A stretch of DNA of 55,957 nt, the filler included, from Bipalium vagum (Eukaryota): assembly GCA_037834085.1 (NCBI GenBank). It is 3 parts of 3 records of this genome, joined end to end, with 100 filler letters (N's around TTAATTAATTAA, not from the genome) between each part and the next. Parts side by side here need not be neighbours in the genome. Positions count along the whole stretch, not along the records: positions 1 to 20,292 come from JBBMKC010256183.1; 2 more parts are not named here. The stretch is one strand, 5' to 3'. Below are positions 1-12,000 of this stretch, in pieces. The notes beneath the pieces were generated by a model. It saw only the letters and a list, made by a program, of their open reading frames with translations, was not told the origin of the DNA and did not search any database. Each line of letters starts with the position of its first letter. Positions within the stretch are counted from its first letter, which is position 1. Both the position numbers and the translations under genes were made by a program.

Positions 1-3000
1 ATGATTTTGTTGAATGACAAAAGGAGCTATTATCACTATTTAATAATTCATAGATAAAAAGATTAGGCATGGCAATTATTGAACTGACAAGCCAAATTGT
101 AACTAGCAATATAAGTTGGGTTTTTCTGGACATCAGTGTACGAACTTTCATGGGATACACAATTGCTATATAACGTTCAATACTCAACATAAACAATAAT
201 AAAACACTGGCTGCATACGAAAGGGACTGTAGGAAAAAGTTGAGTCTGCATGCGATCTAAAATAAAAATAATAAAAATTACAAAAATATGTAATTGTTAT
301 TATACTAAGTGTATTCTGGAACCAGGGGAATCGGAATACTTTAATAAGAAATAAAAATAAATTATGTACAATATTAGTCAAAAGTTTGGAAACCTCTAAC
401 AGCGGTCAGAGCAGTTGATGCGCATGTGAAGGTCCCGGGTTCGAATCCTGGTATCTCCGAATAATTTTCAACTAACAGGCTATTTTGACTATATTCGCTG
501 TGTGTGGCCTTGCGTTGTCATGAAGCAAAATGACATGACTTAGACGATCTGAACTTTTCAGTTGGATAGTTTCGTTCATTCTTTGCAACTGGGCTACATA
601 GATTTCTTTGTTAATAGTATTATTTTTTTAAAGTATTTCCCAGTGTACTAAACCCTCCTACTTCCACCATACACATATCATTGTTTTCTTGGGATGAAGT
701 TCTTTTTTTACTCTTGGCTTAGGCGTGACTCCTTTAGCTACCCACTCCTTCCTCTGTCTCATATTGACGTAGAGACACAATTTCTCGTCTCCCCTGACGA
801 TTCTCTGCAGAAATAGTTCCGTGTGGTGCATGTCGCTCGTGCCGAGCAAGATGTTGTGCTGAGATTTGGAGACGATTTTCTTTGTATCTAAGCTCCAAAT
901 TTTTGCTCAAAGCCGATCGAATGAAGGTGTCTGAGGATTGTAGGATGAGTGCAGCAATTTTTGTCAGCAAGTTCTCTGGATGTTTGGCGACCATTTTCCT
1001 TTAAAAGCTCCTGAAGACGTTCTTCGTCGAATTTGGATGGTCGAAAAGAGCGAAATTTATCTTCAAGATCAAAAATAACCTTTTTGAATTTTTTGTACCA
1101 TTCTTGAGTGGTCCTCGCACCTATTGAATTAGCTCCATAGACAGCACAAATGTCTCGTGCTGCTTCTGTAACTTTCTGACCACGGCAAAAGGCAAAATAA
1201 AATAAATGCCGAAAATGAATTTATTCCCTGCCTGGAATATCCATTTGTAGAGCTAAAAAGATATGTATGATTAAGTTATTGAATGAATAATGATTACATG
1301 CTTGTAGCTTTAAAAAGCGCTTTTAAAATAATTATTTTTGCTCAACAAAACAAAGCTGAAAATAGTAAGAATGACAAATTAAAAAAAACGCGGGAACTTA
1401 TATACCAACCCAATATATGTGTAAATCCTTGAATGATACTTTGAACAATATAATCGTAGAAGAATACATAATCTTGTGGAGAGATTACATAAAATATGCG
1501 TCGTCGTCAACAAATTAAAAGGTGGTAAAATCAATGAAAATTAACTATTAGGATTTTGCGAGTAAAAATAGTGTTAAAGTAATTTTAATAAAGAGTATTT
1601 TAATTTTTAAACTGAAAACAGTATATACATCAAAATCATTAAAAAAAAGAAATAAAACCAATTGTATAAGACTGTAATTTTCAAATTTCATTTTTTTGTT
1701 AAGAGTTTTCAAACTTTTGAGCAGTAGTGCACATGTCATCTAGGTGTGTATTTAAGAAATATAATTTTTATGTAAAAATATTTTGTTTTAATCGTTGAAA
1801 TAATTATTTTATTTGATTAATCAAAAAACATGTTGATACAGAAAAAGAAAATATTTTCTTTTCAAAATTTTCCCGAAGAGATTTTTTCTGTTAAATTTTA
1901 AAGAAATTTAAAAAGAGAAAATTATATCGAAAATTTAAGTAATGCCAAAGCCTTTGGCAAAGTTAAGACATTTGATACTTTCTACGAATCTCTACACAAA
2001 TAGGAGAAATTTTAAGAATTATTTGATACTTCATAACTCGTCTCTGGCTGTGAACGTGCTAATTTTGGAATTTTCCTGAGCCATAAAATTATTAGCAATT
2101 GTTTCTATACTAAACATTTACTCTACAAATACTTTTCCAAACGATAACCATTTTTTTTCATTTTAATATTAAGTTCTTTTATTATGGTGTCCCATAAAAA
2201 ATGAGCGTTTCTGATAAATCAACATTAAAGCTAAATAACGTTTTTTAAAATGAATTAATTAACTATTGATTTTTTGTATAAAATTTTACGTAGATTGCTT
2301 AATAAAATAGTAACATTAAATTTATACATACGTATTTGTTTTATTATTTATTTTAGCGCTCAATTAAAATGTCTACAAAATATGAAATTCTTGTCATTCT
2401 TCTACATTAATAGAAGGACTTATAAATTTTGATCAATTTTGTGAGGGAAAAGAAGGATGTTGGCATTCCATCGATTGCCAAGATCAGAATATATTTGAGA
2501 TCTTTTCAGCTAAAAATCTGCGGTTAGCAATCGATGAATCCACTTTTTACAGACTTTTTTTTATCACAAATCACGAATCATTGAATAAGCACAGCCATAA
2601 GACAGATTAATAGGCTTTGCAACATTTGTTACGCTGATTTTCCGGACTTCTTGATGCATTTTGCGTACACTCCGGTCTCTAATTGAAATTGGATGTTTAT
2701 AAAGGACATAATTTTCTTCCTTAAACCTGTTTGATCAACGACAATGTCTCATCGTATAACATTGGTCATACCAATTGTCAAATCTTGAGAAAATGTTGAA
2801 ATTTGTTGAATTCAGTTCTTGAAAATACAAATCAAATCAAAATAGTATTTTTTCACGAATAATGTTTTGAAGTGATTTGCAATTTTCAGTTCATTTAACA
2901 AACTCCAAATGGGCATTATTTTTAATATTTATTATATCATCATTGGTTCTCAAAGATGTGATTTGTATAAATAACGACTGGTTAAGGAAATATTTTTATA

Positions 3001-9000: not shown

Positions 9001-12000
9001 GATAATGTCAAAGTTTCCAATAATGTCGTAGAAGTCTTCGAATTTCAATATTTTCCATATTTATTAGAACTAAAAAAAATCAATATAAAATCAATTAGTA
9101 TTTTACACCAGTTACTTTATCTACTGAAAGAATAGTTAATTACATTCAAAATGATACATAACATAATTAATTTAAATGTTTTTAACTATATAATAAATTA
9201 GTTTGAAATAGTTAAACAAAAAAACAAAATTACTTATGACTCATTCAATATATATTCTTTATTATATAAATAATTGTACCATCATCTTTTAATAAATTAT
9301 TTCTTTATTTTAGTTCTCCTTTCAATTAAACTTTAGACTGTGCAAGCCTCCCTTATGTAGTGCAACTTATGTATTTACTTTTATGTAATTGATATATGAA
9401 GTATAAAAATGCGGTATAATTGGATGAATATAATTAAACGTGAAAACATTGATGAATCTTTAAATTTTTTAATATCGAGGAAAGAAAAATTTGAAGTTTT
9501 TATTAAAAATATTTTAATTAATTATTTGATTTAGAAAAAGCCGACAAAATCGTTTTAAAATCCGATTTTTTATCGTTTAGTAATAAAAAATTAATGAAAC
9601 TGAACCAATGGAGCACTGATATTAGTCTCAGTGGTTATGAATCAGCAGGCATTAAATCTATTTTAATTAAATCTATTTTTAATTAATCTTTGTGGATAAA
9701 TTTATTTATTTTATGAGTAAATCATAGTGCTATATTCAATCACCGAAATATCCAAATAGAACTTAATGAGACTAATTTATAAAATTAAAAATAACTTTTA
9801 GAATGTCACATGTTACGAAAAAAGGTTACAATGTTTTATTTTCTCTTTTTATTTTCAATCATTTTGTAAGAAATATACCACCTACCAGACCCAGTTGATG
9901 AAGTACAAATCCATTTATGTATTCGAGCAATGTGAAGTTGACACAGAAAATACTGACAGCCAGATCAGCGATTGCCATATTCAGGAGGAACAAGTGAGTA
10001 TATTTATTTCTCATCTCTTTTAGTCTAAGAATCACGAAGATGACTGTGGAATTTCCTAAATTTACAAAAATAAATATAATTTCATCAAAAAAAAAAAGAT
10101 AACTGGAAGAAATGTAATCAGACCGTGGACAGTTTTAAATTTAAAATCACAATTAAAATTACAATACATATTCCCAATTTATTTTCTTTGTTTTAAATTA
10201 GGTGGAGTCATAATATTTCAGATTAAATGATAATTATCATAGATAGATAAAACAATGAAACCCTTATGTAAACACTGCTCAACGATTCAATACCTCCAAT
10301 AAGAAAAATATTCTTGAACCGCGCTCGATGCCACCAAAACCCAGTGATCAGGACGCTCCTGAACTTGGTGTTATTTGCAATGAAATGACTTCGTCTCATC
10401 GATTTCCACCACGATTGGTGTACTATCTTCGTCTACACCGTCTATAACTGTGGAATTATCTTCAAGTTCTTTCTCGCATACATTGCGGCATTATTTCCCC
10501 CACTCCGCAAGTGTTCCAGTGGAAATGTTCATGTGTGCTTTGTGCTCGTTGTCGCTCTCTGTATGTTACAATTTTATCCATAAACGTAACAAGAGGCAAC
10601 AAAGAATGATTCACTCCAGAAACTTCGAAACTATTTGCAGGATTTTCAGTACCATTAGTAATAGTCAGTTGCATTCTGACAGACACATTCCAAAAAGACA
10701 GTCACATTGGTTATAATATATATTGTTTCAAGTGAGCCGACGTTATCACAAACCAGTCATAGACTTCCTGAGATGATTACCGAGCTCCAATAAACTTCAG
10801 TCTTGTAAAATATCTTCTCTAGGTAAGATGTCATTGGAAGCAATAATCGACGTTTTAGTACTTGGTCTACCGCTAGACCTAAATGAAAACTAAAAAAAAT
10901 TCAAAAATTATTCATAATATAAAAAGTGTGGCAGAAGATGTTTGATACGTTAAAATATTTTACGCTGTTTAACTGAATCAATATATTTTTGATTATTTTA
11001 TCCCGCTTAACTGAAGGATTACCAATTCCCGAACTAGGAATTTTATTAAATCATTTCTGAATCTAATCTTCGTTGGGAACAATTTATTACGCCAATAGAA
11101 AATTATTCAGATTTTCTATATATTCTTAGTCTACCTTGTATAGATTTTCGGTATTAGAAAGGCTTACTTATTTCCGACCACCTTGATTACCATATATAAA
11201 TGAAGAAAATAGCTCGAATGTGAAGTTACGGAGTTTTCATAACATAAATTAAAAAATTTATTAATATTTTAAATCTTAATAAATTTCTCCTACAAACAAA
11301 TTTATTATTTTCGAGTTCATTGAAAAGAACAATAAATTATACGAAAATTATTTTTTTACTTCCTTTTGTTCTATAAATCAATAAAATTATTTTAGCCCTT
11401 TAGAAAATATTAAAAAAATTTCTTTACTGGCAAAAATTAAAAACAGAATTTTATATTTAAATATTTTGACATTTGTTCGTTTTTATAAAACATTTCCAAG
11501 ATTATTAATGGATGAAGAGTAATTTTCATTAGGTAATTACGTAATGAGACATTGATTATAGAAGGAAATTGGAAAAATATGTGAAAATATTTCTGAAAAC
11601 AATATATAATATATTTTAGGAAAAATACTGATGTTGTGGAGTGTTCCTTTTGATAATGATTACACTTAAAAATAACAAATATATAAACATAAAATATGTA
11701 AATAGTACTGACAGCTGAACTCTACAGTTAGAGGTGCACAATTGTTAAAATATTAATCTTTTCATTAAGATTTATCTTTTGAATTGTTTTAACTTAATTT
11801 ATAAGCTAAGACACGTTTCTTACTAAAAAGGTTCATTAAAATCTATATTCACATTTTTGTTTTAATAAGATAAAGTTTTCAATTAATAGATTAGTTTTTA
11901 TCTTAGATATTTCTTAGTAAAGAGGGAGGTCTGTAAATCATTTATAATATATTTTCTCAGTAAATAAATTACTGTAACAAAACTACTTTATAAAAATTAA

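Follow-up and report, generated by a model that had tools for sequence, protein, structure and literature searches.

Genes for DDE transposases have been called basically intronless (bioRxiv 10.1101/2021.09.26.461848). Here we describe the leaders that precede the transposase ATG of mariner elements in the planarian Bipalium vagum, starting from a 55,957-nucleotide (nt) stretch of its assembly (GCA_037834085.1), referred to below as the window, which joins three parts of three records (positions 1 to 20,292 from JBBMKC010256183.1) with 100 filler letters between them. A preliminary description of this stretch had noticed three divergent mariner copies with an intron-like GT-AG segment just before the start codon. 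Introns are present in Tc1 and Tc3 of C. elegans as well as in Minos, in all three within the coding sequence, and these elements are Tc1-like and not mariners. Minos, of the Tc1/mariner superfamily, has a 60-bp intron, its transposase gene being made of two exons (PMC2874221).

Splice acceptors directly before the open reading frame (ORF) of a transposase have been described more than once. In Mlmar1/KRABINER and other elements such an AG was already part of the ancestral element, and Cosby et al. suggest that it serves transposase expression (bioRxiv 10.1101/2020.05.07.082677); as far as that text goes, their elements have the acceptor only, used with host donors, whereas the planarian mariners carry a matching internal donor at the distance of a host mini-intron. 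The acceptor of piggyBac also lies directly before the transposase ORF, as here, but the element belongs to another superfamily, relies on a host promoter and host donors and is described without an internal donor (Newman et al. 2008, PMC2268245). In the Drosophila obscura group, LOC26532114 has an RNA-supported 5' untranslated region (UTR) intron before a mariner-derived ORF, but it is a domesticated gene at a single locus whose ancestral transposon is given as intron-free, whereas the families studied here are multi-copy and mobile (PMC13548663). High-copy mariners are known from the same host order in Girardia tigrina (Garcia-Fernandez 1995, cited in PMC8664452), with no leader intron mentioned in that citation. 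Among the matches listed by a full-text literature search, with older subscription papers and Repbase notes outside its scope, none described mobile mariners with a complete leader intron, and the main texts of Wallau 2014 and Bouallegue 2017 contain neither 'intron' nor 'splic'. The novelty is therefore limited: the acceptor before the transposase ORF is already published, and a complete candidate leader intron in mobile mariners is apparently new.

The GT...AG signal in the leaders of these mariners is a real and statistically solid sequence feature, and it extends well beyond the three copies in which it was noticed. These copies, A, B and C, have GTAA...TTTTAG segments of 45, 47 and 46 nt and start codons exactly where the preliminary description had placed them, and they are dead members of three high-copy mariner families (F1, F0 and F6, respectively). 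All three have a Mos1-type N-terminal helix-turn-helix (HTH), which matches PF17906 in copy A and aligns to a profile built from the surveyed mariner loci in B and C, and the 5' ends of all three families, the ends that were examined, start sharply after TA, which fits short terminal inverted repeats (TIRs) flanked by TA. Copy A (480..1413, minus strand) has an intact 5' end and a transposase with stops and frameshifts whose 3' part is missing; its candidate leader intron (1253..1297, minus; AT/GTAATC...TTTTTAG, 45 nt, 46 nt in the family majority) ends with the AG 8 nt before the ATG (1242..1244, minus), and among 30 copies of the family 28 have the GT, 26 the AG and 24 both. Copy B (~2179-2415, plus) is a 237-bp 5' stub consisting of TIR, leader and ~15 codons, after which another repeat follows. 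Its candidate leader intron (2310..2356, plus, 47 nt), upstream of the ATG at 2369..2371 (plus), contains a 4-nt insertion relative to the family, whose majority reads A/GTAAGA...TTTTAG over 43 nt and has the better donor; the GT is found in 28, the AG in 27 and both in 26 of 29 copies. The GT and AG of A and B, majorities of 30 and 29 copies, are thus inherited family features.

Copy C (8535..9244, minus; ATG at 9056..9058, minus) is old, carries an internal deletion and turned out differently. The GTAA at 9115 that had been taken for its donor is a private mutation; the donor of the family maps 5 nt further upstream, to window position 9120, where copy C has A for G, which places the candidate leader intron at 9070..9120 (minus), with a family majority of AG/GTAAAT, a length of 48 nt and a TTTTAG end. 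In this family the GT is kept in 18, the AG in 21 and both in 14 of 30 copies. The TACTAAT that had been read as a branch-like motif was likewise dropped as a branch site, since it is specific to copy C and the family reads TAATATT. Among the copies within families, GT and AG are not clearly better conserved than other columns, which is what dead copies should show. In a comparison for intron-less DNA copies between contigs of run X1 and window positions 1150-2480, none of the 10 joints listed matched segment A or B; such contigs lose rare variants.

Since agreement among copies shows no more than that the motif was present in the active ancestor, the real test is the comparison across families. 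Two protein-level searches and 120 stretches yielded 221 mariner 5' ends, which were grouped into 21 families of at least two copies plus singletons, and a joint rule was applied: the nearest AG at most 20 nt before the ATG, and 40-70 nt above it a GT with a match at three or more of six further U1 positions. It was passed by 15 of the 21 families against 3.2 in dinucleotide shuffles (maximum 10, n = 1000), while control pass rates were 22/252 for reverse-strand anchors, 6/105 for shifted anchors and 78/681 for ATGs of the AT-rich window. The AG alone was present within 20 nt of the ATG in 19 of 21 families (11.8 shuffled) and was pyrimidine-rich in 13 (5.7). Six follow-up families built on purpose gave two passes and four failures, which brings the multi-copy total to 17/27 for the joint rule (shuffle mean 4.1, maximum 10) and 25/27 for the AG. 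Leaving out these six and the three discovery families, 12 of 18 pass against 2.6 shuffled; in the same subset a 45-85 nt window is passed by 13 (3.5 shuffled) and a 42-52 nt window by 6 (1.0), and with a single family per clade the count is 9/16 against 2.5. GT-to-AG lengths range from 43 to 67 nt, and the host mini-introns in the window from 42 to 52 nt. The comparison of family majorities with AT-matched controls that the preliminary description had called for thus favours its observation, as GT and AG are kept at host-intron spacing well above controls.

The bases around the GT point in the same direction. Every GT located 44-75 nt before the ATG was taken from 24 families without selection. 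Of these 38 GTs, 24 have A at +3 and 11 have G at +5, compared with 21 and 6, respectively, of 86 in other parts of these leaders. Two single copies with a good donor but lacking the AG, L172 and L138, provided a prediction, made beforehand, that their families would have it; both predictions held, the family majorities being GTAAGT...AG (48 nt) and GTATGT...AG (49 nt). Furthermore, GT and AG can be aligned over F1, F20, L326 and L310 despite a leader identity of 44-61%. The GT was also considered as a transcription initiator; an initiator-like context is not enriched (4/38 GTs against 5/86 elsewhere), which rules this out for the whole set, although it is possible in families with a weak donor, such as F9 and L233.

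Chance motifs of AT-rich leaders, multiplied by the shared ancestry of the families, could in principle produce such a picture: GTAA and TTAG are common, ATGs of the window pass at the rate given above, the GTAA of copy C is just such a case, and the singletons discussed below fail. Against this, the excess over shuffles is 4- to 5-fold, persists with one family per clade and is strand-specific, both predictions were confirmed, and the transposases of families A, B and C share only 33-45% identity. We regard this explanation as already disfavoured and very improbable.

In light of these data, we think it somewhat probable that the leader GT...AG in most of the sampled families is a cis-spliced 5' UTR mini-intron of the transposase message. 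Transcription would start within the ~100-140 nt that separate the donor from the end of the element. Intron-defined splicing would then join a short first exon without coding function to the few bases before the ATG, and exon 2 would carry the transposase ORF. Active ancestors would have been selected to retain the splice sites, presumably through better expression of the spliced message by export, stability or reduced nuclear silencing. The pattern spans several distant transposase clades, and its donor spectrum and length match those of host mini-introns. The short host introns located in the window measure 42, 43, 44, 48, 48 and 52 nt, next to three long ones, and their donors are of the same kinds as those of the mariner leaders. 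The reference among them is the 43-nt intron of MOGS (glucosidase I; 50841..50883, minus), where the spliced 819-aa ORF aligns over its full length to homologs, the remaining short introns being backed by an open reading frame only. In Schmidtea mediterranea, introns have a short peak at 45-85 bp and intron-defined splicing has been proposed (PMC13594981).

The main competing explanation is that the AG is a spliced-leader (SL) trans-splice acceptor and the segment before it an outron. Transcription would in that case begin at the GT or close to it, and the role of the U1-like site would be promoter-proximal stimulation or occasional cis-splicing. Planarians trans-splice, as known for Schmidtea (PMC10899757), although this evidence does not come from Geoplanidae, and the acceptors of parasitic flatworms, UUNYAG, are widely common to cis- and trans-splicing (PMC12582326). 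In our survey more families have the acceptor (25 of 27) than the donor (17 of 27), and F8, X3 and L254 have an AG directly at the ATG and no usable donor upstream, which is not so in the 17 of 27 families. Two further mariner 5' ends in the window are relevant. The fourth (family X3; 15092..15110, minus) has a T-rich AG directly before the ATG (15094), and the majority of its 14 copies contains no GT donor 40-70 nt upstream, so that it is of the acceptor-only type; in the fifth (family X6; 46047..46135, minus) a TTTTAG adjoins the start codon (ATT here, ATG in the family), and its donor-like GTs, at 77 and 81 nt upstream, are too distant for the strict rule. Host genes show acceptors as well: an AG lies 2 nt upstream of the start codon of MOGS (54514, minus) and 19 nt upstream of that of a gene at 42444 (minus), putatively XPG-like by sequence resemblance, and both AGs are candidate sites of a 5' UTR intron or of trans-splicing. 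Acceptor-only families may well use their AG for SL trans-splicing. For the set as a whole, however, a donor would be superfluous in an outron, and the enrichment of U1-like donors falls exactly at mini-intron distance from the AG; we consider this explanation unlikely, if clearly less so than chance.

The position of the transcription start bears on both explanations. The sole mapped mariner start that we found is that of human Hsmar1, inferred from expressed sequence tags at position 130 of a 178-bp leader (PMC6446368); as reported, it falls at or just downstream of the position of the donors described here, which favours the outron over a spliced leader exon. Several donors have TATA-like motifs 33-52 nt above them, which would restrict the first exon to between a few and 20 nt. 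Of 78 leaders, 14 contain a motif of the form TCATTTTGAAAG (1.2 shuffled), which is shared by planarian and metagenome mariners and lies 78-125 nt before the ATG. Eleven of these leaders also have a GT-AG pair, and in 8 of them the donor lies 23-31 nt downstream of the motif. Read as an initiator, it would yield a first exon of ~30 nt; read as a TATA region, it would put the start almost at the GT. The Hsmar1 start and the TATA-like motifs speak against a cis-spliced leader intron, and so do several further observations. The 40-70 nt window and the score cut were chosen after seeing the sequences. The joint rule was failed by 10 of 27 families, F12 and F13 being without any AG, and by all 12 remaining singletons, which are decayed single copies of the kind in which two similar failures became positive at the family level. 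Among four elements with an intact ORF only L229 has a strong pair (AAG/GTGAAT, 65 nt, by eye), while the donor of L233 is weak, L254 has only an acceptor and L122 lacks both. No branch-site motif or position is shared over the 17 families, contrary to the conserved branch site that the preliminary description had proposed to look for; a weak motif may be normal for this host. Finally, T is found at -3 of the acceptor in 14 of 19 mariner pairs against 2 of 9 host introns, so that mariner acceptors are mostly TAG and the few host ones mostly CAG.

Other properties of the leaders can be added. Eight of 17 candidate introns contain an ATG, compared with 1 of 17 for the 20 nt above the donor, but ATG is scarcer than expected in all segments, and upstream ATGs do not distinguish leaders that have an acceptor from those that lack one (19/46 against 8/17). 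Counted over 36 planarian families and singletons, the leaders contain TTGTTT 41 times in sense and twice on the opposite strand, and TGTTTAAAT 11 times in sense and never on the opposite strand; a promoter or splicing element is a possible cause of this strand bias.

A further explanation is an exon trap: once the element has inserted into a gene, its acceptor would allow it to be spliced to host exons lying upstream, and the GT inside the element would be incidental. This has been published for piggyBac (PMC2268245), and an acceptor is reported for eight of nine captured transposases, including the mariner Mlmar1 (bioRxiv 10.1101/2020.05.07.082677). A trap of this kind accounts for the AG and not for the donor enrichment, and host donors would face competition from a strong donor within the element at minimal-intron distance; we judge it improbable, more so than the outron.

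The preliminary description had suggested that mariners acquired such introns in this lineage. Relatives of the clade of families B and C, at 55-93% protein identity, are present in many other assemblies and in a bdelloid rotifer, and contigs of prokaryote genomes contained no relative. From 80 metagenome loci we obtained 38 usable, non-duplicate leaders, 12 of which pass the joint rule against 6.8 shuffled (p ~0.02), an excess much weaker than in the planarian and in a sample whose hosts may include flatworms. Some metagenome leaders are plainly homologous: L312 has AAAA/GTAAGC and an AG in register with family F3 at 66% protein identity, and L326 and L310 are the metagenome loci whose GT and AG align with those of F1 and F20, as described above. 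Acquisition within the planarian lineage is unsupported, because related mariners elsewhere share GT and AG at aligned positions, and an older feature with losses fits better. In a weak tree, built by a quick method from 128 columns and leaving 40 of its 74 inner branches open, the trait appears in five or more parts and is largely missing from the group of L122; its origin may be single or repeated. For some clades at least, the arrangement is probably older than their entry into this host. A bolder proposal, which we put forward tentatively and hold to be rather doubtful, is that the leader intron is an old and overlooked mariner design across subfamilies and hosts, kept and sized to the minimal intron of the host. 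Some families would have turned it into an SL trans-splice site and others would have lost it, and the 'pre-existing' acceptors behind vertebrate transposase captures (KRABINER, SETMAR) would be its remnant.

If a leader intron in mobile mariners is borne out, it would explain why a ready acceptor stands before the transposase ORF, and it would revise both the statement that these genes are intronless and the use of a 5' UTR intron as a sign of domestication (PMC13548663). Introns hinder nuclear RNA interference in C. elegans (PMC5554785), and planarians, with their good RNA tools, would allow a direct test of whether DNA transposons pass host surveillance by splicing. The building of planarian expression vectors is a possible use.

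The mariners of the survey also differ in catalytic spacing. The residues between the second and third catalytic aspartates number 34 in L233 and L122 and 35 in L229, L254 and, counted by eye, the family B copy L041. Families B and C group with the 35-spaced clade (Shimodaira-Hasegawa-like approximate likelihood ratio test, SH-aLRT, 99), for which a spacing of 35 rather than 34 was thus counted in three members. Intact transposase ORFs are found at L229:359-1390, L254:326-1372 and L233:175-1197. A protein present in four public sources shares 93% identity with that of L229, suggesting horizontal spread in the recent past. Another intact mariner, of 345 aa, is located at L122:322-1356 (C234365) on a 1.5-kb contig and has no AG in its leader; we take it to resemble the ant element Mboumar-9, and it is a candidate for recent horizontal transfer or foreign DNA.

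The three joined stretches of the window have a GC content of 26-29%, and the genome is rich in mariners, a first look returning 20,565 Mos1 HTH candidates. The best COX1 of the assembly, read under the mitochondrial code of flatworms, matches that of Platydemus manokwari at 100% identity, which identifies the host as a land planarian. Two clearly different flatworm-like COX1 sequences (L181 and L182) and broken copies occur in this single assembly, so that some foreign DNA or nuclear copies are possible, from a second lineage or as old nuclear copies. Multi-copy repeats adjoin copies A (~1463-1870) and B (2480-3380, after the stub), a Tc1-like DDE_3 fragment lies at 12283-12612 (plus), and further decayed mariner copies are found at 22677-23130 (plus), 24776-25700 (plus), 33165-33670 (plus) and 36420-37350 (minus).

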